Positions 26,591 to 46,395 are shown, counted from the first letter of the stretch. The stretch is DNA of 64,000 bases from a bacterium (GCA_965218795.1 OZ244653.1:4832001-4896000); one strand, 5' to 3'. Made by a program: numbers and translations. The notes: generated by a model not told the origin, from the sequence alone.

Positions 26591-27760
26591 ATGTTCAGGA
26601 AATCCATCGCGGCAATGGCCGGACTGCTGGCCCTGGTGTTCTCGGGTCAGGCGCAGGCGGCGGATCCGGTCCGGATTGGATACTCGATCGCGAAGACCGG
26701 CCTGTTCTCCAAGGCGGCCCCGTCACAGATTACGGCCTATGAGCTCTGGCGGGATCAGGTGAACGCGGCGGGAGGATTGAACGTCGCCGGGGTCAAGCGT
26801 CCCGTGAAGCTCGTCTGGTACGACGACGAGTCGAACCCTGCGAAAGCGGCCCATATTTATGAAAAGCTCATCACGGACGACAAGGTGGACCTCCTGCTGG
26901 CCCCCTGGGGCACCCCCCACCACCTGAACGTGGCCGGCGTGGTGGAGAAGTACAGGTTCCCGATGGTCGGCAACACGGCCGCTTCCGTGGCCATTCGCAA
27001 GGTATCGCCGGGCTACATCTGGTTTCCGACCTCCGCCATCCCGGACCGGATCGGCAATGAGCTGGCGGCCCTGGCCAAGGCCAACGGGGTCAAGAGTGCC
27101 GCGGTGATCTCGAACGTCCTGCCGTTCTCGCAGGAGAACCGGCAGTTCCTCATTCCCGCCTTGAAGAAGGCCGGCATCGAGGTCAAGGTCAACGCGCAGT
27201 ACCCGCCCGATGTGAAAGACATGACGACGATGCTGGCGAACATCAAGAACGCGGGCGTGGACGCCGTCATCGGTCTCTCCTATCCCGCCGACTCGTTCCT
27301 CTACATGGGGCAGGCCAAAGAGCTCGGCATCCAGGCGCCGTTTCAATTTCTGCTCGTCGGGCCGACGATCGATGCGTTCGGCAAGGCCTTCGGGAAATTC
27401 GCGAACGGGATTGTAACGATTGGCCACTGGAGCCCTCATCAGAAGGCCTGGCCCAGGGGAAAGGCGTTCTTCGACGCTTACAGGGCGAAATTCAAGGGTG
27501 CGTCGCCGGACTATCTGGACACGGCCCTGGCTTACATATCGTGCGAGATCCTCCAGCAGGCGGTCGCCAAGGCGGGCCTCAATCGCCAAAAGCTGCGGGA
27601 GGTCATTGCGAACGGGACGTTCGAGACCATCAACGGCCCCATTCGATTCAAAGGCGTTCAGAACACGGTTACGCCGACCGCCTTTCTTCAAATGCAAGGC
27701 GGCGAGATGCACTTGATCTGGCCCAAGAGCATCTCGACGAGCAAGTTCCAGCCGCGGTAA
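26591..27760 (+). CDS. Liv-type (aromatic/amino-acid) ABC substrate-binding protein
   Basis: Signal peptide, VRIGYSIAKTG, YDDESNP, DKVDLLLAPWGT. Confidence 0.9.
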   Translation: MFRKSIAAMAGLLALVFSGQAQAADPVRIGYSIAKTGLFSKAAPSQITAYELWRDQVNAAGGLNVAGVKRPVKLVWYDDESNPAKAAHIYEKLITDDKVDLLLAPWGTPHHLNVAGVVEKYRFPMVGNTAASVAIRKVSPGYIWFPTSAIPDRIGNELAALAKANGVKSAAVISNVLPFSQENRQFLIPALKKAGIEVKVNAQYPPDVKDMTTMLANIKNAGVDAVIGLSYPADSFLYMGQAKELGIQAPFQFLLVGPTIDAFGKAFGKFANGIVTIGHWSPHQKAWPRGKAFFDAYRAKFKGASPDYLDTALAYISCEILQQAVAKAGLNRQKLREVIANGTFETINGPIRFKGVQNTVTPTAFLQMQGGEMHLIWPKSISTSKFQPR

Positions 27761-27895
27761 TCCGTCGGATGGCTCGTGCCGATGAAGCGGGGGCGGGCGG
27801 CCGTTCGCCCGAAATGCCCGCCCGCCCCCGTCGCTGAATGATCCCGCGGCCACAGTCCGCCCCTTCCCAACCCTTCATCGGGAGTCGCGGGAACG

Positions 27896-28786
27896 TTGGA
27901 CATCATGTTTTCCGGACAATTGCTCTTTTCCGCCTTGGTGCTGGGATCCCTCTATGCCCTCATCGCCCTGGGGCTGAATCTGGTTTATGGGACCATGCAG
28001 CTGTTAAACGTCGCACACGGCGATCTGATCATGATCGGCGCGTACACCTCCTTCTGGCTGTTCACGGTGGCCGACATTCCGCCGCCGGTCTCCATGGTTC
28101 TGGCGGTCGGGATTGCCGCGGGATTCGGGGCGGCGGCCTACTACGGTTTATTCCGCCGCCAGTTGGGCTCGACCCTCACAGTTCAACGTCTGGAGGCGAA
28201 TTCGCTGCTTTTGTTCTTCGGCCTGTCCGTCGTGCTTCAAAATCTCGCGTCTCTCGCCTTCACGGCTTCCCCCCGGGCGTATCCATATCTGGACGGCGTG
28301 TACAGGTTCGGAGGGATTGCCATGACGGGCAACCGCCTCTTGGCGCTCCTGGTGAGCGTCCTGCTTTGCGTCGCCGTGATTGCGTTTCTGCGCGTGAGCA
28401 TTTACGGCCTGGCCATCAAGGCCCTGATCCAGAATCGGACCGCCGCCGCGGTGGTCGGGGTCAATGTGGGGCGCGTTCAGCTGCTGAGCTTCTGCATCGG
28501 CTTCGGCGTGGCGGGCCTCGCCGGCTCTCTCCTCAGCATGACGGAGCAAATCACGCCTTTCATGGGTTTCCCTTTCACGATTGCGGCCTTCGTCGTCATC
28601 ATTCTGGGGGGTCTGGGAAATTTATTGGGGGGCATGTTGGCGGGTCTGTTCCTGGGCTTCCTGCAGATTTACGGAGTTGCGCTGACTTCGCCGATCTACG
28701 GGGCCATCCTTCACTACGGGACTTTCGTGGCGATTCTCCTCCTGCTGCCGCAAGGGCTGCTCGGGGGCCGGAGGATCGGACGGTGA
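27896..28786 (+). CDS. LivH-type ABC permease
   Basis: YALIALGLNLVYG..NVAHGD, IILGGLG. Confidence 0.92.
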   Translation: MDIMFSGQLLFSALVLGSLYALIALGLNLVYGTMQLLNVAHGDLIMIGAYTSFWLFTVADIPPPVSMVLAVGIAAGFGAAAYYGLFRRQLGSTLTVQRLEANSLLLFFGLSVVLQNLASLAFTASPRAYPYLDGVYRFGGIAMTGNRLLALLVSVLLCVAVIAFLRVSIYGLAIKALIQNRTAAAVVGVNVGRVQLLSFCIGFGVAGLAGSLLSMTEQITPFMGFPFTIAAFVVIILGGLGNLLGGMLAGLFLGFLQIYGVALTSPIYGAILHYGTFVAILLLLPQGLLGGRRIGR

Positions 28787-29691
28787 ACGGCGGATGGACG
28801 CTGACTGCGGCAGCTGTCGTCTTGACGGGCGCGCTTCTCATTCCGTGGATCGTCGGACCTTATTATCTGACAGCCGCCCTTTCGCTCTGGATGTGGGTGG
28901 CCCTGACCCAGAGCTGGATCATCCTTTCCGGCATGGGGGGTTACATTTCCCTGGGGCATGTGGTGTTTTACGGATTGGGCGCCTATGCCTCCGTTGTTTC
29001 CTGGAAGGTGCTGCCGCTCTACCTGACGATTCCACTCGCGGGTCTCGCGACCGGAATGTTCGCCTTGTGCATCGGTCCGCCCGTCCTTCGCGTGCGCGGC
29101 CCCTACTTTGTCATCTTGACATTCGGTCTGGCCGAGCTGATCAAGTTCATCGTCGTCAACGTGGAGACGGCCCTGGGACAGGCGAGTCGGCTCCTGTTCG
29201 GTACGCCGGACGTTTCCGATCTCTATTTCGTCATGCTGGGTCTGGCGGCGGCTTCGAGCCTGATGGCCTATCTCGCTCGGCGATCACGGCTCGGGCGGGG
29301 GCTCTTGGCGATCCGAGAGGACGAGGAGGCGGCCGAGACGATCGGTATCCCCGTGGCGAAGTACAAGGTCTTCGCCTACGCCGTCTCCGCCGTGATCCCG
29401 GGAATGGTCGGGGCGGTGATGGCGCTTCGATCGACCTATTTCGAGCCGTTGCAGGTCTTCAGCCCCGCGGTCTCTTTCACGGTCGTCACGATGGCCGTCA
29501 TCGGCGGCAGCGACGACGCTCGCGGTCCTCTCGTCGGTGCGGTCTTCTTGGTGGTCCTCTCCGAATTGTTGTGGGCCAACGCCCCGCAGCTTTACATGAT
29601 CATTCTCGGTGGGCTTCTCGTGGGCTTTGTCCTTTTCGCTCCTCAGGGAATCGTCGGGCGGATGACCGGACGGCGGAGGGCGCCCGGATGA
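28783..29691 (+). CDS. LivM-type ABC permease
   Basis: GYISLGH, RVRGPYF, AIREDEEAA; GTG overlaps the upstream stop. Confidence 0.92.
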   Translation: MNGGWTLTAAAVVLTGALLIPWIVGPYYLTAALSLWMWVALTQSWIILSGMGGYISLGHVVFYGLGAYASVVSWKVLPLYLTIPLAGLATGMFALCIGPPVLRVRGPYFVILTFGLAELIKFIVVNVETALGQASRLLFGTPDVSDLYFVMLGLAAASSLMAYLARRSRLGRGLLAIREDEEAAETIGIPVAKYKVFAYAVSAVIPGMVGAVMALRSTYFEPLQVFSPAVSFTVVTMAVIGGSDDARGPLVGAVFLVVLSELLWANAPQLYMIILGGLLVGFVLFAPQGIVGRMTGRRRAPG

Positions 29692-30416
29692 GCTTGATCG
29701 AGATACAAGAGATCAGCAAGTCTTTCGGCGGTCTCCACGCGCTGAGGGCGGTTTCTGTCGCCGTCGAACCTCATGAAACCGTCGGGGTCATGGGCGCGAA
29801 CGGCGCCGGGAAGACGACCCTTTTCGGATTGATTGCCGGCCACCAGCGCCCGAGCGGCGGGGATATCCTCTTCGAGGGGCGTCGGCTGAACGGCTTGCGG
29901 CCGGATCAGATCTGTCGCCTTGGAATCGCCCGCACGTTTCAGATCGTCCGGCCGTTTCGCGGCCTGACCGTACTCGACAATGTGGCCACCGCAGCCTTGT
30001 TCGGCTCCATCACCGCTTCGACTCAGGCGGCAGCGGGCGCGAGGGCGCGGGAAGTCCTGGCCGACGTCGGGTTGGGCGACCGGGCGGACGATGCGGCCGG
30101 AGCACTCACCTTGTCTGGACAGAAGCGGCTGGAGGTGGCCAAAGCGGTCGCGACCGGCCCGAAGCTCTTGATGCTCGACGAGGTGATGGGGGGTCTGACA
30201 CCGTCCGAAGTCGGGGCGATGCTGGAGACGATCCGCGCGCTCAAAGCCAAGCACGGGCTGACGTTGTTGGTGATCGAGCACATGATGCGGGCCCTGATGG
30301 AACTGTCGGACCGAATCGTCGTACTGCACCATGGAGAGCTGATCGCGGAAGGTCAGCCGAAGCATATCGCTGACAATCCGCGTGTGCTGGAAGCCTACGT
30401 GGGGAAGACGCCATGA
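29688..30416 (+). CDS. LivG-type ABC ATPase
   Basis: GANGAGKTT, ARTFQIVRPF, LDE. Confidence 0.93.
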   Translation: MSLIEIQEISKSFGGLHALRAVSVAVEPHETVGVMGANGAGKTTLFGLIAGHQRPSGGDILFEGRRLNGLRPDQICRLGIARTFQIVRPFRGLTVLDNVATAALFGSITASTQAAAGARAREVLADVGLGDRADDAAGALTLSGQKRLEVAKAVATGPKLLMLDEVMGGLTPSEVGAMLETIRALKAKHGLTLLVIEHMMRALMELSDRIVVLHHGELIAEGQPKHIADNPRVLEAYVGKTP

Positions 30417-31129
30417 CCGGCGGGAGCCTGGATATCCAGGGATTGGTGAGCGGGTACGGGAAAGTCAGGACGGTGCACGGAATTGATGTGAGCGTCCTCG
30501 CGGGCCGGGTCACCGCGCTGGTCGGCAGCAACGGTGCCGGCAAGAGCACGACGATGCGCGCCGTTGTCGGTCTGTTGCCGGTCCAGGCCGGTGCGATCCA
30601 CTTCGACGGAGAGCCCGTCCACGGGTTGACGTCCGACCAGCGGGTGAATCTCGGTCTGGTGATGGTACCGGAAGGGCGTTTGATCTTCTCACGCATGACG
30701 GTCGAGGAAAACCTGAGGATCGGCGCCTTCGCCCCCCGCGCGCGGGATCGGGTTCGGGAAAACCTCAGCCTCGTCTATGACCTGTTGCCCCGGCTGGCGG
30801 AGCGGCGTCGACAGCTGGGGGGAACCCTCTCCGGCGGAGAACAGCAGATGCTGGCCCTCGGCCGGGGGCTGATGTCAGAACCCCGGCTCCTCCTTTTGGA
30901 TGAGCCGACTCTCGGTCTGGCCCCGGTGATGGCGCAGAAAATATTCGAGACGATTGAGAGCTTGGCGCAATCCGGTTTGACCATCGTCCTTGCGGAGCAG
31001 AACCTCCAGATGACGCTCTCGCTGGCCGCGGCCGGTTACGTCATGGAAAACGGCAGGATCGCGCTCCAGGGCACGGGGCGGGAACTGCTGGAAAATCCGG
31101 ATATCCGTCGGGCTTATCTGGGAGTATAG
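30413..31129 (+). CDS. LivF-type ABC ATPase
   Basis: GSNGAGKST, LSGGEQQM, LLLDEP. Confidence 0.94.
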   Translation: MTGGSLDIQGLVSGYGKVRTVHGIDVSVLAGRVTALVGSNGAGKSTTMRAVVGLLPVQAGAIHFDGEPVHGLTSDQRVNLGLVMVPEGRLIFSRMTVEENLRIGAFAPRARDRVRENLSLVYDLLPRLAERRRQLGGTLSGGEQQMLALGRGLMSEPRLLLLDEPTLGLAPVMAQKIFETIESLAQSGLTIVLAEQNLQMTLSLAAAGYVMENGRIALQGTGRELLENPDIRRAYLGV

Positions 31130-31177: not shown

Positions 31178-33487
31178 TCAGCCCGAAGCGCCTTCTTCCT
31201 CGAGTGCGGCGAGGACCTTCTCCGGGGTCAACGGCAGATCCTTGATGCGAACCCCTACAGCGTCGTAGACGGCATTGGCCACGGCGGGGGCTGTGGCCAC
31301 AAGTCCAGGCTCTCCCACGCCCTTGGCGCCGAAGGGTCCGTTCGGATCGGGGTCTTCTATGATAATAGGGATCATCTCCTCAGGAACGTCATATACGCTG
31401 GGAATTTTGTAATCGATGAATGATGCATTGACCGTCTGCCCGCCTTCGGTCACGAGGTCTTCCATCAAGGCGTAGCCCAGTCCCTGGGCGAATCCTCCTT
31501 CGATCTGCCCTTCGACAACCGTCGGGTTGATGGCCTGACCGACGTCGTGCGCTGCAATCGCTCTGATGACGCGCACGTCACCGGTCTCCGTGTCCACCTC
31601 CACCTCGACAATGTGCACCCCGAATATGAACGCCGTCAACGCGCCAAAGGGAAAGCCGTTCAGGACGGCCCGCTTGGGATCGAAGGCTTGACCTTCGACC
31701 AGGAACGAACCCTTGCCCAGAATCGGGCCCCCGCTCACCCAGTGGCTGATGGCCCCCAGGTCGCGATAAGGCAGAGCCCGCTGCGGGGCGCCTTTGACGC
31801 GGATGGTTCGATCGTGGAGCTCCAGGTCCGCGACATCCGCTTCCAGCGTCTTCGCGGCCAGATCGAGAAGCTGATTCTTTGCGTCTTCGGCGGCCAGCTT
31901 GACGGCGTTGCCGACCGTGAAGGTGGTGCGGCTGCCCGCGGTCCCCCAGTTGAACGGTGAGGTGTCGGAATCGATCGAAGCGTAGTGAATGTCCGACATC
32001 GGGACGCCGAGTTCTTCCGCCGCGATCTGGGAGAGCACGGTCTCGCATCCCTGGCCGATGTCCACGGCGCCGGCTACGAGCCCCATCGTTCCATCCTCAT
32101 TGACCTTGACGAAGGCCCCCGCTGACAAAAGTCCGCTGATGTGATGGAGTGCGGCAATGCCCATCCCGCGCATCGTCCCTGGTTTCGCGGAACCGGATGT
32201 TCTCCAGCCCGCCCGAGAAGCGGCTTCATCGAAGCAGCGTTTCAGTCCCACGCTGGTGAATTTCGTTCCCCCGAGGGCCGCATCTCCGACCCCTACGGCG
32301 TTCTTGAGACGAATGTCCAGGGGATCGATCCCCAGCCGATCGGCAATCATGTCGAGTTGGGATTCGGATGCGAACGTGGCCTGGGGGTTGCCGAACCCGC
32401 GGAAAGCCCCGGACTTCGGCAGGTTCGTGTACACGCAATAGCCGTCGACCTGGACGTTGGGAATCCTGTAAGGCCCGCGGGCCATCATTGCTCCGAAGCC
32501 CGTGATTCCCGGCCCGTCGTCGGCATAGGCGCCGGTGTTGTAATAAAGCCTCACCTGCTTCGCCGTGATGCACCCGTCCTTTTTCACCCCCGTCTTGATC
32601 TCGATCCGGCAGCTGTGGCGGGGTTTCGAGAAGATAAACTCTTCCTGGCGGTTCAGGTAAAGCTTCACCTTGGCGCCGCACTTCAGAGCCAGCGCGCCGG
32701 CCATCGGTTGGACGGTGGGCTCCATGCGTCCTCCGAACCCGCCACCGACACGCGTGTTGATCACGTGGATTCTCGACTGGGGGATGACCAGCGATTCCGA
32801 TATCCGGATCTGCGTCAAATGAACGGACTGCGTGTTGCTCCAGATGATCAACCTGCCGGAGGCGTCCACGTCTGCGACAGCCCCGCTGCGCTCCATGTAG
32901 GTCTGGTGAACGCGCGGAGTCGTGAACGTATCCTCAAAGATTTCGTCGGCTTCGGAAAACCCTTTTTCCAGGTCTCCCTCGAGGAACGTCGTATGGGAAC
33001 ACACGTTTCCATCCTGCACCGCCGGGTAGATGGTGATGTAATCTTTGAGGTCCGGATGCAGGACAGGCGCGTCCGGGGCCATGGCCTGATCGACGGTGAA
33101 TACCGCGGGAAGCTCTTCGTATTGGACTTCAATGAGCTGGATCGCTTCGGCCGCCGCCTCGTCGGTTCTGGCCGCCACGACCGCCACCGGCTCTCCGACG
33201 TACAGGGCGATGCCTCTTGCGATGGCCGGCTCGTCCTTGATAAACGGCCCCATTCGGCCCTCGGGCAGGTCTTCCCCGGTCAGGACCGCCTTCACGCCCG
33301 GAACGCGCAGCGCCTTCTCGGCGTTCACGGCGGCGATTCGGGCGTGCGGATACGGACTCCACACGACACGAGCGACGAGGGCCTCGTCATGCCGCTCGTC
33401 GTCGAAATACCGTGAGCGTCCGGTCACCTTCTCTGCGGCGTCGACCTTTACGACCCGGGTACCGACCAGCGCATGGGTTGTCGTCAT
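31178..33487 (-). CDS. Xanthine-dehydrogenase-family molybdopterin subunit
   Basis: GGGFGG, AFRGFG, DIGQG, GQIEGG, AKGVGE. Confidence 0.95.
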   Translation of the reverse strand: MTTTHALVGTRVVKVDAAEKVTGRSRYFDDERHDEALVARVVWSPYPHARIAAVNAEKALRVPGVKAVLTGEDLPEGRMGPFIKDEPAIARGIALYVGEPVAVVAARTDEAAAEAIQLIEVQYEELPAVFTVDQAMAPDAPVLHPDLKDYITIYPAVQDGNVCSHTTFLEGDLEKGFSEADEIFEDTFTTPRVHQTYMERSGAVADVDASGRLIIWSNTQSVHLTQIRISESLVIPQSRIHVINTRVGGGFGGRMEPTVQPMAGALALKCGAKVKLYLNRQEEFIFSKPRHSCRIEIKTGVKKDGCITAKQVRLYYNTGAYADDGPGITGFGAMMARGPYRIPNVQVDGYCVYTNLPKSGAFRGFGNPQATFASESQLDMIADRLGIDPLDIRLKNAVGVGDAALGGTKFTSVGLKRCFDEAASRAGWRTSGSAKPGTMRGMGIAALHHISGLLSAGAFVKVNEDGTMGLVAGAVDIGQGCETVLSQIAAEELGVPMSDIHYASIDSDTSPFNWGTAGSRTTFTVGNAVKLAAEDAKNQLLDLAAKTLEADVADLELHDRTIRVKGAPQRALPYRDLGAISHWVSGGPILGKGSFLVEGQAFDPKRAVLNGFPFGALTAFIFGVHIVEVEVDTETGDVRVIRAIAAHDVGQAINPTVVEGQIEGGFAQGLGYALMEDLVTEGGQTVNASFIDYKIPSVYDVPEEMIPIIIEDPDPNGPFGAKGVGEPGLVATAPAVANAVYDAVGVRIKDLPLTPEKVLAALEEEGASG

Positions 33488-33527: not shown

Positions 33528-34004
33528 TCAGCGGCCGCCGGCGGACGTTTGGGCGGCGACCTCAATCGCTTCAAGAATCTTGACGTAACCCGTGCAGCGG
33601 CACAGGTTTCCCGCGATATGAGTCTTGATTTCCTCCCTGGATGGCTGCGGGTTCGCATTCAACAGCGCTTTCGCGGCGAGGATCATCCCGGGTATGCAGA
33701 ACCCGCACTGAACCGCGCCGGTCTGCATAAACGCCTCCTGAAGCGGGTCCAGTTTGCCGTCTCTCGCCAGCCCTTCAATCGTCGTCACCTCTTTCCCCAC
33801 GGCATCGAACGCGAACATGAGACAGGAACGGACCGCCGTGCCGTTCAGGAGTACGGTGCACGATCCGCACTCACCGACTTCGCATGCCTCCTTCGTTCCC
33901 GTCAGATGCAGCCGGTCCCGCAGCACCTCGATGAGGAGCTCGTTGGCCTTTGCGTCGACCACCTCACGCTCGCCGTTGATCTCCAGGTTCAGCTGAATCT
34001 GCAT
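33528..34004 (-). CDS. XDH-family 2x[2Fe-2S] subunit
   Basis: CEVGECGSC, QCGFCIPG, NLCRCTGY. Confidence 0.96.
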   Translation of the reverse strand: MQIQLNLEINGEREVVDAKANELLIEVLRDRLHLTGTKEACEVGECGSCTVLLNGTAVRSCLMFAFDAVGKEVTTIEGLARDGKLDPLQEAFMQTGAVQCGFCIPGMILAAKALLNANPQPSREEIKTHIAGNLCRCTGYVKILEAIEVAAQTSAGGR

Positions 34005-34012: not shown

Positions 34013-34900
34013 CTAAGCCTCCAGCTTCACACCGTTGGATTCCAGGGCGTTCAGCAACCCCCGCCGGACGAGGACCCGGACCATCTTGCGCCGATATTCG
34101 GCCGAGCCCCGGAGATCCGAGAGCGGAGCGGCTTCTTCAGCCGCCGCGGTCGCCGTCTCATTGATGAGTCCAGCGACCGGCCGCTGACCCCGCAGCGCCT
34201 CTTCCGCCCGGGGGCAGCGAATCGGTCTCGGGGCCGCCGCCGCCAGTCCGATTCGAACGTCTTCCACCGCTGCTCCATCTTCGCAGGCGATCGTGACCGA
34301 CGCGGAGACGACCGGTATATCCGTAGCGTTCTTTCGCAGCTTCTCATGGGCGCCGCTGCGTTCGGCAAGCTCCGGGGCGACGGTGATCCGGGTCAGGATT
34401 TCATCTTCGGCCAGCTGCGTTTCAAAGGTGTCGACGAAGAAGTCCTCCACGGCCATGACCCGCTCGCCGTCCGCGCTTTGCAGGTGGACCTGAGCGCCCG
34501 CGGCGATGAGTGCCGAGGCCATGTCGGTTGCCGGGTCGGCATGGGCGATGCTGCCGCCCACGGTCCCCATGTTGCGAATGGGCAGGGAGGCCACATATCC
34601 CGCCGCTATGGAAAGCACGGGGTAATGCTCGGCCACGACCTCGGAGTCTGCGATCCATTGATGCCGGACGAGTGCTCCCACGTCCAGGCCCTGTTCAGGT
34701 TGGAAATCAATTTGATCAATGCCCGGAATGGTTTTGATATTGATGAGAAATCGCGGCTGGATGAGATCGTACTTCATCAGGATGGCGAGGGCGATCCCGC
34801 CCGCGATAAGCTTGGCTTCTCCGGCGTGCTCCCGGAGGAGCGCGCAGGCTTCCTCGGTCGAGCCGGCTTCGATGTACTCGAACTCACGAATCCTGGCCAT
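34013..34900 (-). CDS. XDH-family FAD-binding subunit
   Basis: IAGG, IRNMGTVGGS, DLRGSAEYR. Confidence 0.94.
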   Translation of the reverse strand: MARIREFEYIEAGSTEEACALLREHAGEAKLIAGGIALAILMKYDLIQPRFLINIKTIPGIDQIDFQPEQGLDVGALVRHQWIADSEVVAEHYPVLSIAAGYVASLPIRNMGTVGGSIAHADPATDMASALIAAGAQVHLQSADGERVMAVEDFFVDTFETQLAEDEILTRITVAPELAERSGAHEKLRKNATDIPVVSASVTIACEDGAAVEDVRIGLAAAAPRPIRCPRAEEALRGQRPVAGLINETATAAAEEAAPLSDLRGSAEYRRKMVRVLVRRGLLNALESNGVKLEA

Positions 34901-36510: not shown

Positions 36511-36689
36511 CCCTCCCGCGTAATCGCCTGGATTCAGAATCTCCCCCTCGACCGGCGTTCAAGCCTCGGGCGGGTCTTGAAATCCTCCCCCTGCGCCGGC
36601 AGGCAACATGAAAATAAGGATATCTTGTCTAATGGTTCGAGTGTGCATCCTAAGATGGGCTTCAATTCGATGTCAACGGAGGGCCCGGC

Positions 36690-37182: not shown

Positions 37183-38718
37183 TTACGATTCTCTCAGTGC
37201 CTTTTTGTCGATCTTGCCGACCGTTGTCTTGGGGATGTCCTCCTGGACATTGATGACAACGGGTACTTTGTATTTGGCGAGGTGCTCCCGGCAGTGTGTC
37301 ATGAGATCATCCGCCGTGGTTTCGGCGTCCGTCCGAAGTACAACGTACGCCTTGATGACTTCGCCCCGGTAGTCGTCGGGCACGCCGACGGCAGCGGCTT
37401 CCTGAACGGCGGAATGCATGTAGAGAACCTCGTCGATCTCGCGGGGATAAACGTTGAAGCCCCCGACGATGGCCATGTCCTTCTTGCGGTCCCGGATAAA
37501 GAGGTCGCCCTCCTCGTCGAACTCGCCGATGTCCCCGGTGTACAACCAACCATCGCGCAGGGTTTCAGCGGTCTCCTCCGGCCGGTTCCGGTACCCCGAC
37601 ATGATCTGAGGTCCGCGAGCGCGAATCTCGCCCCGGAGTCCTGTCTCCAGGACGTTGGTCCCTGTCTCCACGTCGACAATCTGCACTTCGGTCCGGGGCA
37701 GCGGCCGGCCCACTGAGCCCGGCTTCATCGTCCGTCCCTCTGCGATATAGGTGAGCACCGGACCGGCTTCGGACTGGCCGTAGCCTTCCAGGACGGGACA
37801 ACCCGTCAGCTCCTGCCAGCGCTTGAGGGTTTCCTCGGGCAGCGGGGCGGACCCGGAATAGGCGGTGCGCAATGTGGACAAGTCGGCTTCCTGACACCCT
37901 TCGCAGGCCAGCAGTCCGTTGAAAACGGTCGGCCCCGCTGGCAGGCGGGTGATCCTTTCCCTTTCGACGGCCTCCAGCACCCGGTCGGGCCGGTAGCGCG
38001 GGAGGATCACGAGACGACCCCGGCAGTACACCGACAGGTGAAGGCACATGGCGGAGGCGAACACATGGAACAAGGGCATCATGCACAGGATGGATTCTTC
38101 ATCCTTCAGCGTCGGCAAGGCCGCTTCGCGCTGGCTGATGTTGACCGACAATTGGCCGTGGGTGATGTTGACGCCCTTGGGCAGGCCGGTCGTCCCTCCT
38201 GTGTATTGAAGCGTGGCGAGGTCTTCCGCCCGGGGTTGGGGCAGGCCGGCGGATGGGTCTTCCCTCCAGACGTCCAGCAGCCTCCCATTGGGGTGACCGA
38301 CCTTGATCCCATGCGGGATCTGGAGCTCCGCCAGGAGGGGTTCCACGGTAGAGGCGGTTTCCTGGTCGTAGACGACGGCGGTCGGTTCAGCGTCGCTCAG
38401 GATGTGCGTCAGTTCGCGAGCCGTATAGACGGGATTGATGGGCACGGCCTGTGCAGTCGCCGCATGCACGGCAAACATGGCGACAGCGATTTCGATCGAG
38501 TTGCCGCAAATCAAAGCCACCCGGCCGCCGCGTGCGCCCAGATCGACGAGCTCAGCCGCGAAACCTCCGACACATCGGACCCATTCCGTGTAGGTCAGCC
38601 GGCGGTCCTCAAAGAGCAGTGCGGTGGCGTCCCCGGCCTGCTCCTCCGCATCCGCAAGCATATGGACGACCGTCTCGAATACCCTGGGCAAATGTCCTTT
38701 CGCCGTCTCCTGAACCAT
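37183..38718 (-). CDS. Acyl/aryl-CoA ligase (AMP-forming)
   Basis: YTGGTTGLPKG, GYGQSE, GWLYTGD, VGKID. Confidence 0.94.
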   Translation of the reverse strand: MVQETAKGHLPRVFETVVHMLADAEEQAGDATALLFEDRRLTYTEWVRCVGGFAAELVDLGARGGRVALICGNSIEIAVAMFAVHAATAQAVPINPVYTARELTHILSDAEPTAVVYDQETASTVEPLLAELQIPHGIKVGHPNGRLLDVWREDPSAGLPQPRAEDLATLQYTGGTTGLPKGVNITHGQLSVNISQREAALPTLKDEESILCMMPLFHVFASAMCLHLSVYCRGRLVILPRYRPDRVLEAVERERITRLPAGPTVFNGLLACEGCQEADLSTLRTAYSGSAPLPEETLKRWQELTGCPVLEGYGQSEAGPVLTYIAEGRTMKPGSVGRPLPRTEVQIVDVETGTNVLETGLRGEIRARGPQIMSGYRNRPEETAETLRDGWLYTGDIGEFDEEGDLFIRDRKKDMAIVGGFNVYPREIDEVLYMHSAVQEAAAVGVPDDYRGEVIKAYVVLRTDAETTADDLMTHCREHLAKYKVPVVINVQEDIPKTTVGKIDKKALRES

Positions 38719-38798: not shown

Positions 38799-40748
38799 CT
38801 ACCAACCCGGCGGGCGTGAAACGGTGATGTGCGGCTGGACCTCCTCCTCGGTCGGAATCCATTTGGGCGTGATGAGTTTTCCCTGCGGATGCAGCTCGTG
38901 CGCGCCGGTTCCTTCTGTGAACCCCTTCTGTTTCAGATGCTCCCGCAGGGCACGGGATTCATCCTCGTTGATACGATAGTCGCAGGCCTCCGCGTCGATC
39001 TCTTCGATGACGACGCCGTAGTAATTTCGCGCCGCCTCGATACTGAGCCATTCGTCCATCACATCGGTCAAAACCAGCTGGGGGTCCCGTTCCATCGGAT
39101 TGCCGAACCCGCCCCCTCCGCTGGACGAGTAGTAAATGACGTCGCTCTTCTTCAGCTCCACGCCGGTGGCGTACATCCCCGCATTGAACTCCCGGTCCGT
39201 GTCTTTGTTGACGACGAGCATGCTGCCCCCGGCATTGAGCCCTCCGTAGATGCCCCAGGGCGGAAATTTTTCCCGGTCGCCGTGGATGGTCATGGTGACG
39301 TCTGTCTGGATCTCGAGCTCCCGCACGAGAGCGAAGCCGCCCCGATACATGCCGTGACCGCAGCTGTCCGTGCGGGCCTCGTACTTCGTGTAGATGACCG
39401 GGAACCATCGCTCCTCCAGTTCCTGCGGAATCGTCCTGGCGTTGCAAAAGCGCATGAAGATGAGGGATTTCCCGTCCTTGAACGACCTGGCGTTCTCACC
39501 GCCCACCGCATAGGTGTATTGGACGAACTGCTTCTTCGTCCGCGGATTGTAGCCGCCCATGCAAAGGTTGGTCAGGCTCACCGCCGCGGGGTAGACTCGC
39601 CATGGCTGGACTTGGCTCATGGGACCGGCCAGGCAGCCGATAGTGACCGCCTCGACCTTGTCAAAGGCGCCGGAGCAGTAACCCGTCGTCGGCGTCGGCT
39701 CCAGGACGTGCACGCATGACCCGGGCTTCGAGATGATCTCCAGGTTTCGGATGATCCCGTGGTTCAGCGGAAACAGCGCGGGGAAGCAAATCATGAAGCC
39801 CAGATAGTTCGCCCCGATCAGTGTAGGGCGCGCGGCGCCCCAGGAGGCCCGGGGCTGCGGGTCGGATTGGGTCCAATCAAAGGAGAGCTTCGTTCCTGTT
39901 TTCGTCAACTTGCAGTGGACGTAGATGGGAGGCTTGCCTTCGGCCATGACGTCCTGGTCGCCGTAGTCGCTGAACTCCCATTCCCCGTCCGGCAACTCTT
40001 CGAGTCCGGCAAGCATCAAGCGCTCGGTGTAATTGAACTGCTCTTCATACGCCAGGAAAAGGGTTTCTTTGCCGTAGCGCCCGGCCAGCTCGACCACCCG
40101 ACGGTCGATCAGCCGGGCAGCCTCGACCTGGGCCTGAAGGTCCGCCCGCCGCTCGACGGCGCCCCGGATATTGATCTCGATCAGGCTGAAGAGTTCTTCG
40201 TCCAATTCGTCGTTCTTGAACAGGCGGATGGGCGGGATGCGGAGCCCTTCGGCGAAGCAGGTGGTGGCCTCGGGGTTGAAGGTTCCGGGCATCGGTCCGC
40301 CGATGTCGGCCCAATGGATGACCGTGCAGGCAAAGGCGACAATCTCGTCTTCATAGAAGATGGGCCGGATGAGGCGGACGTCGTTGACGTGCGAACCCGT
40401 CCGGTACGGATCGCTGAAGATGAAGGTGTCGCCGGGCTTCATCGTTTCCCTGGAGAACACCTTGAGCAACTCCGCCACGGAGGGCTCAAAGGATGCGTAA
40501 TGGGCGGCCGCATCGGTGTGACCGTGGGCGACCAGACGGGCGTCGGGGGTCAGAATGGCGTTTGAGCGATCACGCCCCATGCCCACCACCGGGTGGTAGG
40601 CGATTCGCTCAATTGTCGAGGATGCTTCGTAGCAGGCCGCCACGAAGGCGTTCCGCATGACCTCAAACGTGATGAGGTCCATCTTCAAATCCTGAATCTC
40701 CGTAAGGGTTTCTTTGACGCTCAGATTGTCTTGACGCTGTTCGTCCAT
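38799..40748 (-). CDS. Hydantoinase B/oxoprolinase-family subunit
   Basis: SDPYRTGSHVND, HWADIGG, EGLRIPP, GGGGFGNPMERDP. Confidence 0.94.
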   Translation of the reverse strand: MDEQRQDNLSVKETLTEIQDLKMDLITFEVMRNAFVAACYEASSTIERIAYHPVVGMGRDRSNAILTPDARLVAHGHTDAAAHYASFEPSVAELLKVFSRETMKPGDTFIFSDPYRTGSHVNDVRLIRPIFYEDEIVAFACTVIHWADIGGPMPGTFNPEATTCFAEGLRIPPIRLFKNDELDEELFSLIEINIRGAVERRADLQAQVEAARLIDRRVVELAGRYGKETLFLAYEEQFNYTERLMLAGLEELPDGEWEFSDYGDQDVMAEGKPPIYVHCKLTKTGTKLSFDWTQSDPQPRASWGAARPTLIGANYLGFMICFPALFPLNHGIIRNLEIISKPGSCVHVLEPTPTTGYCSGAFDKVEAVTIGCLAGPMSQVQPWRVYPAAVSLTNLCMGGYNPRTKKQFVQYTYAVGGENARSFKDGKSLIFMRFCNARTIPQELEERWFPVIYTKYEARTDSCGHGMYRGGFALVRELEIQTDVTMTIHGDREKFPPWGIYGGLNAGGSMLVVNKDTDREFNAGMYATGVELKKSDVIYYSSSGGGGFGNPMERDPQLVLTDVMDEWLSIEAARNYYGVVIEEIDAEACDYRINEDESRALREHLKQKGFTEGTGAHELHPQGKLITPKWIPTEEEVQPHITVSRPPGW

Positions 40749-40757: not shown

Positions 40758-42815
40758 CTACCGATCCACCTGAATCGCAAGGTTCCCGTAATCATCCACA
40801 GTGCAACGGGTACCGGGCGGCATGACGGTCGTCGTGTCGGGTTGTTCGATGATGGCGGGTCCGTCTACCGCGGCGCCGACGCCAAGCCTCTGCCGTTCGT
40901 AGATACCAGCATCCACGAATCCAGCGTCCCGGAACCACACCTTCCGGGAGGGTTTCCGCGCTTCATCGAGTGAACCCTTCCGGTCGATCCTGGGGAGGTC
41001 GGGTTTTTGAATCAGCCCCAGCGCGACGATGCGCAGGTTGACGATTTCCACAGGCGCGTAACCGGTCGGCAGCGTATAGCCGTACGCTTCTTTCATCGTG
41101 GCCTGAAAATCCTGGGTGATCCGATCGAGGCCCTCGACTCGTCCGGGAGGGATCTCGACAGTGAAAAAGCTGCTCTGGCTGAAGAATTTCACGTCGAAGT
41201 AGCGCTGGATGACCACCACCTCCTTCCCGATCCCCTCTCCCGTCAACATATCAAAGGCCCGCTGAGCGAGGCCGTCCAGTTCACCGTTCAATTCTTCGAA
41301 GTCGATCTCCTCTTCCATCTTATGGACCGCCGCGGTGAACTCATGCTTCACATCGACGCGAATGGCTCCCCAGGCGGATGCGTAACCCGGCAGGGGGGGG
41401 ATGATCACGGAAGTCGAGCCGATCTCTTTGGCAAGGTCGCAGGCGTACATCGCCCCGCCGCCTCCGTAAGGCACGATGGCGAAGTCCCGCGGATCCCAAC
41501 CGCGCGAGACGGTTTGAATCCGCATGGCCATCATCAGGTTGGTCATCGCCACCATATACATGTTGGCGGCGGCCTCCTCGGCGCTCCATCCGTAGTGTTT
41601 TCCGACCTTTTCCTTCAGTGCGTTGTAGGAGAGGCGTCCGTCCACCTTCATCTCGCCCCCCAGGAAGTAGTCGGGATCGATCCGGCCCAGGACAATTTGG
41701 CAGTCGGTGTTCGTGGCTTCCTCACCGCCCATGTTATAGCAGGCCGGACCGGGCACCGCCCCCATGCTTTGCGGCCCGACGTTCAGGATCTGCCCCTTGT
41801 CCACCCAGCCGATGCTCCCGCCCCCGGCGCCGATGTACACAGTGTCCACCGAAGGCAGGCAGCAGGGCACATTCCAAAGAATCTTCCATTCATGGGTGAT
41901 CGCGGGAGATCCCTTGTAGATCATCGACACATTATTGGTCGTGCCGCCGGTCTCGAACGCAATCACGTTTTCGAATCCCGCGAGGGATCCGATGTATCCC
42001 GCCATTCCGACGGCTCCGGACACGGGGGAGGAATGGAATGTCCGAGCCGGGAGCTTGAGGGCCTCCGCAACGCTGGTCACCCCTCCACCGCTGGTCGTGA
42101 CCAGGATGGGTCCTTCATAGGCCCAATCCTCCTTCAAACGCACGGCGAGACCGCGAAGGTAGTTTTTCAGAATGGGAGAGACGTAGGCGTTGAGAACGGT
42201 GGTGCACGTCCGCTCGAACTCGAGCATTTGAGGCAGCACTTCGAAGGAGATCGTAAGGTCCACGTCCGGAAGCTCTTCTTGAAGGATCTCACGCGTTCGC
42301 TGTTCGTGGCTGGGGTTCATGAATGAGTCGATATAGACGATCGCCACCGATTCGATGCCGCGCTTCTTGCACTTTCTCGCCGCCACGCGGACATCCTCTT
42401 CGTTCAGTGGGACGACCACTTCGCCGTACGGGCTGACCCGTTCCCGGACCGTGAGCACGTTACGCCGGGGGACGATCAGCTCAGGCGGGTCCCAGTCCAG
42501 CTCGAATGCAGAAATCCTCTCCGCCCTTCCTCCGCCCAGCACGTCCCGAAACCCGTCCGTGGTGATGAGGGCGGTCTTCACGCCCTTTCGCTCCAGGATG
42601 GCATTCGTTGAAACGGTTGCGCCATGCCGAAAGGAAATCGTCTCTTCACCCGACAGATTGGCCTTTCTGAGCCCATTGATGACGCCATCGAAGAATGTCG
42701 GCGGGGTCGACGGGACCTTCCCGAGTCGCTGCTCTCCGGTTTCGGTGTTGACTCCGATGACATCGGTAAAAGTCCCCCCGATATCGGTGCCGACGATCCA
42801 TTTTCCATTGACCAC
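40758..42815 (-). CDS. Hydantoinase A/oxoprolinase-family ATP-binding subunit
   Basis: DIGGTFTD, IGAGGGSI, GAVPGPACY. Confidence 0.94.
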   Translation of the reverse strand: MVNGKWIVGTDIGGTFTDVIGVNTETGEQRLGKVPSTPPTFFDGVINGLRKANLSGEETISFRHGATVSTNAILERKGVKTALITTDGFRDVLGGGRAERISAFELDWDPPELIVPRRNVLTVRERVSPYGEVVVPLNEEDVRVAARKCKKRGIESVAIVYIDSFMNPSHEQRTREILQEELPDVDLTISFEVLPQMLEFERTCTTVLNAYVSPILKNYLRGLAVRLKEDWAYEGPILVTTSGGGVTSVAEALKLPARTFHSSPVSGAVGMAGYIGSLAGFENVIAFETGGTTNNVSMIYKGSPAITHEWKILWNVPCCLPSVDTVYIGAGGGSIGWVDKGQILNVGPQSMGAVPGPACYNMGGEEATNTDCQIVLGRIDPDYFLGGEMKVDGRLSYNALKEKVGKHYGWSAEEAAANMYMVAMTNLMMAMRIQTVSRGWDPRDFAIVPYGGGGAMYACDLAKEIGSTSVIIPPLPGYASAWGAIRVDVKHEFTAAVHKMEEEIDFEELNGELDGLAQRAFDMLTGEGIGKEVVVIQRYFDVKFFSQSSFFTVEIPPGRVEGLDRITQDFQATMKEAYGYTLPTGYAPVEIVNLRIVALGLIQKPDLPRIDRKGSLDEARKPSRKVWFRDAGFVDAGIYERQRLGVGAAVDGPAIIEQPDTTTVMPPGTRCTVDDYGNLAIQVDR

Positions 42816-43054: not shown

Positions 43055-43336
43055 TCAGCCCTCGGCGCTGCTTTTTTCCTTTTGGGCGGCATGTATTTCA
43101 TGGCGCGTGGCTCTCTCGGCCATGATGTGCTTGATGTAAACCTTCTGCTTGGGCCGTTTCCCCTTCAAGTAACGGTTCATGACGTCGCCCCCGAGACGGC
43201 CCCAGGCGGCCGGGTTCAAAACGACGGTCAGGTCGATATCTCCCTTCGCCGTCGCAACCAGCGCGAGAGGGGCACCGTTCATCCCGGTGATGATGCTTTC
43301 CCGGTTTTTTGCCGTCGCGGCGACCGCCTGGGTCAC
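43055..43336 (-). pseudogene. C-terminal fragment of a sugar-type ABC substrate-binding protein
   Basis: ITGMNGAPLAL...GDIDLTVVLNPAAWG..KVYIKH; no N-terminal part. Confidence 0.55.
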
Positions 43337-43459
43337 TTCCCGGATTCAGCGATTGGCTCTTGTGTTCTTCTTCCTCATCGCATAAAAAAGAATACTATTC
43401 TTTTTTTGATCGGTAGGTCAACATGTAAATCCCGGCTTGTTTGACGAAAATATAACGAA

Positions 43460-44056
43460 ATGCCACAGGTCAAAAAGGCTGCGGTACGAGACGCGATCAT
43501 GAACAGCGCTTGTGAATTGTTCATGGAGCGGGGCTATGCGAACACAACCCTCGCCGACATCGGAGACGCGGCAGGGGTGACCATTTCCAACATCTACAAT
43601 TACTTCGAATCAAAGCTCGATATTCTGTTCGCCGTCTACGCCCCCTGGCTGGACGAACGCCTGGACCGCCTTGTCGCCGAAGTAGAAGCCATCCATGAAC
43701 CTCGCGACAGGCTGCGCAAGGTATTCCTGACCCTGTTGCGTGATATCCCCGCGGAGAACGGGGGGTTCACCAACAACCTCCTGCAAGCGCTCTCCACCCG
43801 CAAGGAGGATGAGGTCTATTCGAGAGACCTGTTGCTCCGGTCCGAAGCCAAGGTCTCCTCCATCTTTCTCGAGATCCTTCCTCAACCCACTCGCCGGTTT
43901 GCCGATGGCAACCTGCTCTCCCATTTGCTCTTCATGGCCTTTGACGGGTTCGCCATCAACTATAAGCTGAATGGTGGATCCCAACAGGCGGAAGCCATAT
44001 CCGATATGCTGTCGGATCTCATCCTCAGCTCTCCCCCAGACGTAGACACTCGCTGA
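43460..44056 (+). CDS. TetR-family regulator
   Basis: N-terminal HTH LFMERGYANTTLADIGDAAGVTISNIYNYFESK. Confidence 0.93.
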   Translation: MPQVKKAAVRDAIMNSACELFMERGYANTTLADIGDAAGVTISNIYNYFESKLDILFAVYAPWLDERLDRLVAEVEAIHEPRDRLRKVFLTLLRDIPAENGGFTNNLLQALSTRKEDEVYSRDLLLRSEAKVSSIFLEILPQPTRRFADGNLLSHLLFMAFDGFAINYKLNGGSQQAEAISDMLSDLILSSPPDVDTR

Positions 44057-44084
44057 ATTTCCCTGAATCACCCGGTTTCGGGGA

Positions 44085-44290
44085 CGGTTCGGCCCGCCAC
44101 CCGCCTCGTTCAACAAAGTCGCGATGTTTTGGAAGACTTGACGGGCTTGGCCTGCAAAATTTTCGGATTCGAACTCCTCTTTTTCGTTCCAGCCCACCAT
44201 GCCGGCGAGGAAGATCATTTTGCCTTTTGCCGTCATTCCGTTGCTGTACCCTCTGGGGCGAGGCCAATCCGGGGGCTGAAGTATCTCCAC
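44085..44290 (-). pseudogene. Truncated RidA/YjgF-family gene
   Basis: LQPPDWPRPRGYSNG, FLAGMVGWN, QARQVFQNI; C-terminal half missing. Confidence 0.8.
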
Positions 44291-44452: not shown

Positions 44453-44475
44453 TTCGACGAGGGAAGCGAAGCCAA

Positions 44476-45285
44476 ATGTCCAAATCGGAATCCAACGCTG
44501 AAGGATCAAAGCCTCTGGATGATTGCCATGCTCTGATCACTGGAGGGTCCCGGGGGATCGGTGCGGCTTGTGCCGAGGCGATTGCCGGGGCAGGCGGATC
44601 GGTCACTCTCGTAGGGCGGACGGAGAAGACCTTGCAGATCCGATGCAATGAGCTGAGGGCGGGCTACGGGGTCAAGACCTCATCCGTTGTCTGTGATGTC
44701 ACCGATATGGAAAAGATTCCAGATGCCGTTGAGCGCGCCCGGGCAGACCTTGGACCGATCAGCATCCTCGTGAACAACGCGGGTGGAGTTCAAAGCGCTC
44801 CGTTTTCCCGGACCACGAGCGAGAATTGGGAAGAAACCCTCGCCCTGAATTTGACGAGCACGTTCGCTTTCACCCGGTCCGTGCTGCCCGACATGCTTGC
44901 GCAGGATTTCGGGCGGGTCGTGAACATTGCGTCGACGGCCGGCCTCAGGGGGTATGCCTACGTCACCGCTTATTGCGCGGCCAAGCACGGGGTGATCGGC
45001 ATGACGCGGGCCCTCGCAAGGGAGCTGGCCCGGACAAGGGTTACGGTCAACGCGGTCTGCCCCGGTTTTACCGACACCGATTTGATCGGGCAGACCGTGG
45101 ACACAATCACGTCAGCGACCGGCCGGAGCCGGGAGGAGGCCCTCGGGGCATTGAAAGCCATGAATCCTCAGGGGCGCCTCATCCGGCCAGGGGAAGTGGG
45201 AGATGTCGTCGCCTGGTTGTGCCATCCGAACTCCGGGTCCATGACGGGCTTGTCCGTTCCCGTGGATGGAGGCGAATTATCGTAA
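44476..45285 (+). CDS. Short-chain dehydrogenase/reductase
   Basis: TGGSRGIG, NNAG, YCAAK. Confidence 0.94.
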   Translation: MSKSESNAEGSKPLDDCHALITGGSRGIGAACAEAIAGAGGSVTLVGRTEKTLQIRCNELRAGYGVKTSSVVCDVTDMEKIPDAVERARADLGPISILVNNAGGVQSAPFSRTTSENWEETLALNLTSTFAFTRSVLPDMLAQDFGRVVNIASTAGLRGYAYVTAYCAAKHGVIGMTRALARELARTRVTVNAVCPGFTDTDLIGQTVDTITSATGRSREEALGALKAMNPQGRLIRPGEVGDVVAWLCHPNSGSMTGLSVPVDGGELS

Positions 45286-45812
45286 TGGCCGAAATGGCGG
45301 ACAGTCTGACCGACACCCTGGATCTTGAATCCTCCGTAACGAAGGACGACCATCTGCAGTTGCGCGTCTGGCTTCGTCTCTTGACCTGCGCGACTCTGAT
45401 CGAACGGGAAATACGCAAAGGGTTGCGGGAGGATTTCACCACAACGCTTCCCCGGTACGATGCCCTCGCCCAACTGGAGCGCAGCCCCAACGGACTGACG
45501 ATGGGGCAGTTGTCCCGGCGGATGATGGTCAGCAACGGAAATGTGACCGGGGTGGTTGACGGACTCGTGAGCGAGGGCCTCGCCGAACGGCTGGCTGTGC
45601 CGGGCGATCGTCGGGCCAGCTACGTCCGGATGACGCGCAAGGGGAACCAGGAATTCAACCGGATCACGCCCATCCACCATTCCTGGATTCGCGATATGCT
45701 GGAGGAGATGGGCCGGTCGGAGCTGACTCTTCTGTTCAACGCGCTCGGCGATCTCAAGTCATCCATATTGACCCATCTGGAGCAGGAGAAAGGGAATCCG
45801 GAGGCGACGTAG
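45285..45812 (+). CDS. MarR-family regulator
   Basis: LRVWLRLL, TTLPRYDALAQLER, MVSNGNVTG, DRRA. Confidence 0.92.
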   Translation: MAEMADSLTDTLDLESSVTKDDHLQLRVWLRLLTCATLIEREIRKGLREDFTTTLPRYDALAQLERSPNGLTMGQLSRRMMVSNGNVTGVVDGLVSEGLAERLAVPGDRRASYVRMTRKGNQEFNRITPIHHSWIRDMLEEMGRSELTLLFNALGDLKSSILTHLEQEKGNPEAT

Positions 45813-46199
45813 ATGAAAAAGCTGAAAGGCGCTGAGTTCAAGCCCGGGTACTTCCGGTGGGAGGTCCGAGACCGTGTTGCCACGATCAGGACGGGTGGAA
45901 CATCACGGGAGACGTATGCACCCGGGCCCGGAGTCGAAAGCGCCTTGCTCGAGCATCACAAGGTCAAGGAATGCGCGGTCGTCGCCGCCCCGGATCCCGT
46001 TCGCGGACACATCGTCAAGGCCTTTGTCGTGTTGGAAAATCCGGGAGAGAGGACGCCCGAAACCGTCGAAGAGCTCCAAACCTTCGTCAAGAGCCGAATC
46101 GCGCCTTACGAATATCCACGGGGGGTTGAATTCCTCGATAGTCTCCCAAAAACGCAGAGCGGCAAGTTGCAGCGATTCAAGCTGCGGGAGCCCTCATGA
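45813..46199 (+). pseudogene. Deletion chimera of an enoyl-CoA hydratase N-terminus and aryl-CoA ligase C-terminal fragments
   Basis: FRWEVRDRVATI, out-of-frame DGWNITGD, then VESALLEH..GHIVKAFVVL..LPKTQSGKLQRFKLR. Confidence 0.78.
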
Positions 46200-46226
46200 G
46201 TCGGAGGGGGGGAGTGGTCGCAGGCG

Positions 46227-46395
46227 ATGAAGATTGCGTGTATCGCCGCCGGCCGCGCCGACACCTGCGTGATTGCCCGGATGCATCTTGTTCGATCCCT
46301 ATTGGACACGCCACGCGGCCAACGGGTTCGGCTACCCCCTCCCCATGCCCAACCAGTACAAAGCCGTCGAGGTCTGCACGCCGAGATGGATGTAA
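46227..46395 (+). pseudogene. Collapsed AbmA/salicylyl-CoA 5-hydroxylase-like gene (termini only)
   Basis: MKIACI joined to AAGRADTCVIARMHL, then frameshifted FDPYWTRHAA..PNQY; not in the ORF track. Confidence 0.65.

Follow-up and report, generated by a model that had tools for sequence, protein, structure and literature searches.

The 64,000-nucleotide (nt) stretch of bacterial DNA analyzed here (the window; GCA_965218795.1, OZ244653.1:4832001-4896000) carries, at 26591-46395, adjoining genes for a two-subunit ATP-dependent lactamase (HydAB), a CoA ligase, a UbiD-family (de)carboxylase, an XDH-family molybdenum hydroxylase, a TetR-family repressor, and an ABC importer. These genes probably represent a TetR-repressed regulon for the oxygen-independent breakdown of an N-heteroaromatic compound, likely benzo-fused and taken up as an acid. 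On comparative sequence evidence, the importer, Mo hydroxylase, lactamase, ligase, UbiD, and operator belong together in a single conserved unit, of which the window copy is a degraded and atypical member.

Gene order was checked by open reading frame (ORF) listing, translations, and Pfam/NCBIfam scans of the whole window. As a sequence-only reading of the window had described, hydA, hydB, the ligase gene, a thiolase relic, ubiD, and the XDH FAD, FeS, and Mo genes run co-oriented on the minus strand, with a divergent tetR (43460-44056, +; Pfam) and a convergent livKHMGF-type ABC importer (26591-31129, +; Pfam) beside them. Genes for HydA, the ATP-binding subunit (40758-42815; 685 amino acids (aa)), and HydB, the metal subunit (38799-40748; 649 aa), lie 9 nt apart. 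The AMP-forming ligase gene (37183-38718; 511 aa, intact) follows after 80 nt, the thiolase pseudogene (36690-37122) after a further 60 nt, and ubiD (35014-36504) after 185 nt. Gaps of 113, 8, and 40 nt then lead to the XDH FAD subunit (34013-34900; 295 aa; NCBIfam and translation), the 2Fe-2S subunit (33528-34004; 158 aa; family scan and translation), and the intact Mo subunit (31178-33487; 769 aa). All seven core genes are full length and translate without a frameshift. A match to the sigma70-like consensus (TTGACA-18-TAGGAT; 36647-36676, −) marks a possible internal promoter before ubiD.

Judged by its conservation in related genomes, this grouping exceeds chance. Among the 120 HydB matches listed, at least 115 are near-full-length relatives of 62-96% identity. 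When GTDB genomes were searched with an alignment of 30 HydB sequences, 112 relatives were returned; the best 80 gave 76 loci, all in metagenome-assembled genomes (MAGs). Clade I accounts for 58 of these loci, at 65-91% identity and with eight phylum labels, and a sister clade II for the other 18, at 42-46%. Flanks were 10 kb; 44 of the clade I loci span at least 14 kb and 14 are shorter. Locus genes were called by script and labeled by BLAST and Pfam/NCBIfam (98 + 85 chosen ORFs, 61 representatives scanned). Across the 58 clade I loci, hydA is present in 56 and some CoA ligase in 50, either an ortholog of the window enzyme (32 loci, at least 60% identity) or a PaaK-family enzyme (18), never both together. 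An XDH Mo subunit of at least 44% identity occurs in 23 loci and any XDH subunit in 33, UbiD in 21, a thiolase in 14, CoxG in 11, and UbiX in 4, with TetR orthologs (38-62%) in 27, LivK (43-62%) in 21, and an RbsB-type binding protein in 18. Aldehyde:ferredoxin oxidoreductase (5), a mutase (2), flavin reductase (2), and acyl-CoA dehydrogenase (1) are rarer; ligase, UbiD, and an XDH subunit coincide in 13 loci. The sequence-only reading had raised a lack of co-conservation as an objection to itself. That objection fails because the unit, including UbiD, XDH, the TetR regulator, and the Liv importer, is conserved.

The relatives also share a candidate regulatory element, overlooked in the first reading. 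The tetR upstream regions have in common a GAAT-N3-ATTC palindrome, and 13 sites, contributed by 12 of the 26 regions, were used to build a weighted matrix. The window holds a perfect 23-bp palindrome (43384-43406; core GAATACTATTC) that covers the −10 element of a leftward sigma70-like promoter (TTGACC at 43421). Its matrix score (28.8 at 43387) compares with 12.4 for the next window site and 16.4 for the best of 20 shuffles. Of the 30 loci with a window-type ligase, 23 have a site scoring at least 14 no more than 260 bp from hydA, as against 0/17 PaaK-type loci, 2/5 others, and 0/52 coding-region controls. The operator also precedes ubiD, coxG-ubiD, xdh, and transporter operons (L052, L034, L024, L032), while several PaaK-type loci carry sigma54/V4R two-component or IclR regulators instead. 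TetR probably binds this predicted operator, whose recurrence among the relatives supports the proposed co-regulation of the catabolic unit. In the window, the bare pattern GAAYNNNRTTC is not enriched (4 found, 5.45 expected), and only the weighted matrix singles out 43387. The matrix scan found no operator before ubiD, a second ubiD, or a PadBCD-like operon at 16-22 kb, and no strong site before livK. Sigma70-like consensus matches number 8 in the window (shuffled mean 4.6, sd 2.3), and a scan for terminators gave no useful signal (12 in the window against a shuffled mean of 17.4).

Both lactamase subunits retain recognizable catalytic features. The HydB metal tetrad D60-H120-D123-H145 is invariant in our alignment; the equivalent tetrad, Asp-His-Asp-His, was essential in CapB (PMC8453981). 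HydA has a canonical P1 motif (DIGGTFTD) and a variant P2 (FETGGTTNNV), which recurs as AFETGGTTNNV in 51 of the 54 full-length clade I HydA sequences counted. The hydA-hydB pair has no gamma, alpha', or epsilon subunit gene, and a two-gene hydAB without gamma is described in PMC5214803 as the pattern of a lactamase rather than a carboxylase. The best solved relatives of HydA and HydB are PDB 7HK5/9H03. The pair shares gene order, P1 motif, and tetrad with CapAB and N-methylhydantoinase, but scores only 481 and 243 against an NCBIfam cut-off of 1000, has ETGGTTNN at P2, and has a beta subunit ~70 aa longer with different pocket residues (HydB Ala80/Ala82 align with CapB Ile60/Ile62). An ESM Atlas search with HydB returned generic hydantoinase clusters only. 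HydAB probably represents a new subfamily of ATP-dependent lactamases. The best PDB matches of the ligase are a malonyl-CoA synthetase chimera (248 bits) and feruloyl-CoA synthetase (245 bits).

The Mo subunit of the XDH-family enzyme keeps the motifs HQTYMER, GGGFGG, GAFRGFG, and AKGVGEPG, with its catalytic-type Glu, and falls inside a 45-row clade with cluster-linked XDHs (FastTree support 98). Its best PDB match is the alpha subunit of 4-hydroxybenzoyl-CoA reductase (439 bits; next 279), yet the three subunits score below the HcrA, HcrB, and HcrC cut-offs (613/995, 99/404.55 for TIGR03195, and 181/258 bits), HcrA far below, and the FAD subunit has no HcrB-type 4Fe-4S insert.

The UbiD triad R157/E259/E264 is intact and invariant in the alignment, and the protein exceeds the TIGR00148 cut-off (356 against 244.85 bits). 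Its own clade, of 14 clusters at 64% identity or more, is small and distinct from the tight 20-member clade of the clade I loci in a quick IQ-TREE analysis without a single-clade test; its sole genome-located clade mate (L062, 73%) lies beside hydAB and a PaaK-type ligase. In PDB searches the window UbiD matches HmfF and Escherichia coli UbiD at 247-249 bits and AnInD at 154 bits (19th of 40 matches), and for the usual cluster clade AnInD scores 101 bits (39th of 40). In L001 and L002, whose HydB is nearest to that of the window, the order is hydA-hydB-ligase-thiolase; the window therefore looks like a thiolase-type locus in which the thiolase is dead and a non-standard UbiD stands behind it. 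Two unrelated thiolase families have been recruited beside the ligase or hydB gene, the common one keeping classical catalytic motifs. UbiD and thiolase occur together in just 1 of the 58 clade I loci (naive Fisher p 0.011; 0.003 in the 44 loci of at least 14 kb), but this exclusion is non-significant after phylogenetic pairing (median p 0.125). The pairing test used 56 rows from both clades and counted L066 as thiolase-bearing though its thiolase sits in another operon, and the 10-kb flanks end several loci just past the thiolase position. We treat the exclusion as a lead only.

A pathway whose general chemistry has good support, unlike its specifics, would begin with the Mo enzyme adding a water-derived oxygen to the carbon beside the ring nitrogen, giving a lactam that HydA would phosphorylate and HydB open. 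CoA activation of the acid would come either ahead of this opening or after it, a carbon unit would be removed by UbiD (as CO2) and/or thiolase (as acetyl-CoA), and the product would be an o-aminoaryl-CoA such as 2-aminobenzoyl-CoA. We lean toward a benzo-fused substrate. The PaaK-family ligases, the V4R-domain sensor kinases, and the proximity of the XDH to 4-hydroxybenzoyl-CoA reductase point to aromatic chemistry. Four anthranilate routes are listed in PMC4539516, and genes of three of them occur beside hydAB: abm (window, L065, L066), a 3-HAO-family gene (L060), and gentisate-dioxygenase-family genes (L023, L047).

Several observations weigh against this interpretation. The anthranilate-route neighbors are rare and were counted without a background control; abm occurs in 0/58 clade I and 2/18 clade II loci, and the cupin in 2/58, below both family cut-offs. 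Transporters of the NMT1, NCS1, and RbsB types and neighboring amidinotransferase-like, RidA, and amidohydrolase_2 genes would equally suit a pyridine or pyrimidine. The P2 motif of HydA has Glu where Asp is essential in CapA, and the window has no gene for UbiX, the prFMN partner of UbiD. Of the 58 clade I loci, 25 have no XDH and 37 no UbiD inside the 10-kb flanks (14 loci being shorter than 14 kb). No enzyme of the unit has a close characterized relative: plasmid tblastn searches with HydB, HydA, XDH Mo, ligase, both UbiD clades, and a Pad-like subunit gave family-level matches (26-40%), the best for the core enzymes reaching 36-40%. A PDB search with LivK found distant binding proteins only. 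A search of the open literature, which covered neither subscription journals nor kynurenate degradation, found no published description of the cluster.

Two characterized pathways offer the closest logic. The iaa locus of Aromatoleum aromaticum and A. evansii shares the two-subunit lactamase, CoA ligase, and binding protein, and also includes an XDH-family enzyme (IaaIJK) and a thiolase (IaaA). Unlike iaa, the window unit has UbiD and TetR and lacks the mutase, the acyl-CoA dehydrogenase IaaF, and the CoA transferase IaaL. Family scans found no B12 mutase, acyl-CoA dehydrogenase, hydratase, or CoA transferase anywhere in the 64 kb, and with the thiolase lost and UbiD directly behind it, the sequence-only description of one catabolic unit with iaa-like logic (XDH-family hydroxylase, HydAB, and CoA ligase together) on a route without these steps holds. 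The mutase in L004 and L006 was rejected as a sign of iaa since it accompanies a PaaK-type ligase of its own (plus a TetR in L004). In the furan (hmf) pathway of Cupriavidus basilensis, HmfABCD is an XDH-family hydroxylase and ligase set acting on a heteroaromatic ring. Its UbiD, ligase, and hydroxylase are shared at family level, so that the UbiD-XDH coupling emphasized in the first reading is present but not new in kind. The hmf ring is an O-heterocycle handled without an ATP-dependent lactamase, and the window lacks UbiX (HmfG). HmfF, the UbiD decarboxylase that supplies the ligase and hydroxylase of that pathway (PMC6644310), is the closest solved UbiD, yet only at family level (247 bits). 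The iaa pathway activates its substrate with CoA first (PMC8360864) and ends in 2-aminobenzoyl-CoA (PMC9613470, PMC8360864). Closeness to the Iaa proteins themselves, also proposed, is not borne out: HydB has 649 aa against 564 for IaaE (PMC8453981), and 0/76 loci come from Aromatoleum, Thauera, or Azoarcus, an indirect sign drawn from the best 80 of 112 pattern-based matches. The unit works like iaa and hmf but belongs to neither by the features tested.

Among specific substrates, a monocyclic N-heteroaromatic acid of the pyridine, pyrrole, pyrimidine, or imidazole type, treated as 2-furoate is in hmf, is possible, if not what we favor. Here the CoA ligase would act first; after XDH hydroxylation and lactam opening, an aliphatic CoA ester would be decarboxylated or cleaved by thiolysis. 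Among solved relatives, HmfF ranks first or shares first place for both UbiD clades, the ligase is close to malonyl-CoA synthetase, CoxG occurs in 11/58 loci, and TenA joins the NMT1, NCS1, RidA, amidohydrolase_2, and amidinotransferase-like neighbors. An aromatic pyridone, however, normally requires ring reduction ahead of hydrolysis, and a flavin reductase is found in only 2/58 loci; the PaaK-type ligases and V4R sensors suggest a benzenoid ring.

On the benzo-fused side, kynurenate or a 4-quinolone is a tentative candidate. UbiD would yield 4-hydroxyquinoline, XDH 2,4-dihydroxyquinoline, and HydAB 2-aminobenzoylacetate, whose CoA ester the thiolase would cleave to 2-aminobenzoyl-CoA and acetyl-CoA. 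Such a route employs every conserved enzyme and needs neither hydratase nor dehydrogenase, which the loci lack. That the thiolase is the sole beta-oxidation enzyme kept, and was recruited from two families, suggests that a 3-oxo acid is already present once the ring has opened; by this reasoning, opening of 2,4-dihydroxyquinoline to 2-aminobenzoylacetate would fit a lone thiolase better than the indole route considered below. Its last two steps would match those of benzoylacetate in the acetophenone pathway (PMC5214803). The end product is what the abm enzymes act on, hydroxylated analogues would supply enzymes of the 3-HAO or gentisate type, and the alanines at HydB 80 and 82 hint at a larger pocket. 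Against it, UbiD and thiolase are predicted to occur together, as they do in a single clade I locus; with thiolase and abm dead in the window, other copies would be needed; and there is no close characterized quinoline-2-carboxylate UbiD, AnInD rejecting that compound. Still more speculatively, UbiD and thiolase would be exchangeable modules, the window having caught a swap in which a foreign-clade UbiD replaces the deleted thiolase.

The route first proposed, from indole-3-carboxylate through indole (UbiD), oxindole (XDH), and 2-aminophenylacetate (HydAB) to a CoA ester that feeds the PadBCD-like and ThDP operon, is unlikely, as is an indole-type substrate generally. It is chemically minimal, and oxindole is the known first intermediate of anaerobic indole degradation (PMC6221969). 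PaaK-family ligases replace the window-type ligase in 18/58 loci, the aldehyde:ferredoxin oxidoreductase of five loci could supply indole-3-carboxylate from the aldehyde, and the scarcity of UbiD with thiolase would fit, although it does not survive phylogenetic pairing. An oxindole/2-aminophenylacetate route has reportedly been described in Thauera; our literature search did not retrieve it. AnInD, which shares the UbiD family and the R-E-E triad, is remote from both UbiD clades, and a Ser stands 14 residues past the catalytic Arg where AnInD has the indole-binding D169, which by this offset is apparently not kept; AnInD is described as strictly specific (PMC8988006). These distances speak against indole-3-carboxylate as the UbiD substrate. 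A 2-aminophenylacetyl-CoA route would also leave the thiolase, intact in 14/58 relatives, without a role. Orthologs of the Pad-like/ThDP genes were found in 0/76 loci (best 23-37%, partial), the operator is absent there, and between that operon and the island lie 4.5 kb that carry a Sel1 gene and repeats; the proposed link is not supported. Any other benzo-fused type is very unlikely.

That this is not a lactam pathway at all is quite improbable. In one version, itself very doubtful, HydAB would be an ATP-dependent activator or carboxylase and XDH a reductive dehydroxylase, as in anaerobic phenol and acetophenone metabolism. This would agree with the resemblance of XDH alpha to 4-hydroxybenzoyl-CoA reductase, with the HcrB-like beta subunits found in 4 loci and the additional, phenylphosphate-carboxylase-like UbiD found in 2, with a HydB exceeding the typical Hyd beta length, and with the unusual P2 motif. 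Against it, the loci lack gamma, alpha', and epsilon subunits, the window beta subunit has no 4Fe-4S insert, and the Mo subunit falls well short of the HcrA cut-off.

The preferred reading, an N-heteroaromatic lactam pathway, must accommodate extensive decay. The thiolase relic joins codons ~1-80, with a stop and a frame disruption, to codons ~333-400 of intact orthologs, ~250 codons being deleted between these N- and C-terminal remnants; in L001, too, all that is left of this gene is a stub behind the ligase gene. An RbsB-type binding-protein relic (43112-43333, −; last ~70 codons) was overlooked in the first reading; in relatives its ABC importer sits between tetR and hydA. In a PDB search the RbsB-type protein is closest to ribose-binding proteins, and ribose was not adopted as its substrate, several sugar-binding residues seemingly being missing. 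Beyond tetR lies the abm-like relic noted earlier, which we matched against the annotated abm operon of CP052127.1. It comprises a RidA/YjgF gene (44090-44290, −; lower end approximate) that keeps its N-terminal part and is truncated near the tetR 3' end, a full-length SDR (44476-45285, +; 53% identity), a full-length MarR regulator (45285-45812, +; 45%), and a deletion scar (45813-46199, +) in which a short N-terminus is fused to the C-terminal domain of the abm CoA ligase (46% over residues 426-535). A frameshifted AbmA (2-aminobenzoyl-CoA monooxygenase/reductase) C-terminal scrap may follow at 46242-46395 (+), a weak match (39%, E 0.001 in a 3.2-kb search). From its position, the N-terminus of the scar may be enoyl-CoA-hydratase-like. 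The abm hydratase and dehydrogenase had no match in this comparison, and the block is a relic without a working operon, mostly deleted. By comparison with relatives, thiolase, RbsB-type importer, and the neighboring abm operon have been deleted in the window lineage. Since the core genes are intact, erosion therefore falls on accessory genes. Relative to the nearest genome (L001, a Nitrospinota MAG with HydB at 91% and the one hint at the host taxon), hydA, hydB, and the ligase gene have dN 0.058-0.119 and dS 1.17-1.29 (dN/dS 0.05-0.10). Three relic blocks within 20 kb, further decay and repeats elsewhere in the window, and a UbiD of a non-standard clade could suggest a chance mosaic or non-functional debris, which the conserved gene set and operator, these substitution rates, and the seven unbroken core genes make highly improbable.

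Related genes occur elsewhere in the window and loci. A second UbiD (48077-49438, −), with Ile in place of the conserved catalytic Arg, has a DUF169 gene on one side and, on the other, a dihydropyrimidinase-like amidohydrolase (46440-47981); these neighbors had no match in the 76 loci. A lone hydB without adjoining hydA (50398-52275, +) and XDH FAD and FeS genes without an adjoining Mo subunit (62170-63645, −) are also present, and one more hydA begins at the edge of the window (63843-64000, +). In L003, L011, L015, L040, L045, and L048, all from anaerobes, a ~700-aa cytoplasmic Mo/W-bisPGD enzyme (Fdh/acetylene-hydratase-like) is encoded just before hydA and might add or replace a hydroxylation step. 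Three further loci (L038:13572-17815, L041:13569-17817, L054:5930-10239) hold a compact anaerobe operon of hydAB, ubiD, a PaaK-type ligase, ferredoxin, aldehyde:ferredoxin oxidoreductase, and moaD, implying an aldehyde intermediate upstream or downstream. Clade II hydAB with adjoining RidA-like genes occurs in a Nitrosopumilales archaeon MAG (L061:7925-11878). An arginine-deiminase/DDAH-like (amidinotransferase) gene in L019, L038, L040, L063, and L071 is unexplained by benzo-fused models.

The operon at 16362-22057 (+) encodes a Mo-bisPGD/FeS/NrfD trimer, a MoaD-like protein, and a two-subunit, ComDE-like ThDP decarboxylase; no NCBIfam family scores above cut-off, the best plasmid match is 26%, and the operon, itself an orphan, could be sulfonate- or aryl-oxoacid-related. 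Dispersed non-coding MITE/REP-like repeats (50-124 nt, 86-93% alike, both orientations) form blocks at 22239-22750, 25575-25878, 52438-52488, and 61662-62150, two of which flank a Sel1-repeat/trypsin-like gene (13 x 108 nt). A partial duplicate relic (10529-10900, −; 55-77% aa) of the Bmp/PnrA binding-protein gene at 11238-12230 lies beside a tRNA cluster, and a VanA-like Rieske oxygenase precedes an NMT1-type ABC importer at 55868-59778 (+).

To our knowledge, the enzymes that open indoles or quinolines without oxygen are largely unassigned. Anaerobic indole degradation is called a black box in a 2018 review (PMC6221969). As a more speculative extension of the kynurenate proposal, uncultured bacteria of eight phyla may possess an undescribed oxygen-independent route for quinoline-type compounds (kynurenate, xanthurenate, 4-quinolones), in which the compound would be decarboxylated and hydroxylated at C2, 2,4-dihydroxyquinoline opened at the expense of ATP, and anthraniloyl-CoA released by thiolysis. 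The intact loci L002, L016, L018, L034, and L050 are better objects of study than the window copy, and the two uncharacterized UbiD clades and the new lactamase subfamily are of biocatalytic interest. The regulon is compact and conserved, so far in MAGs only, with a predicted repressor and operator, and the ligands of its TetR and binding proteins could name the substrate.

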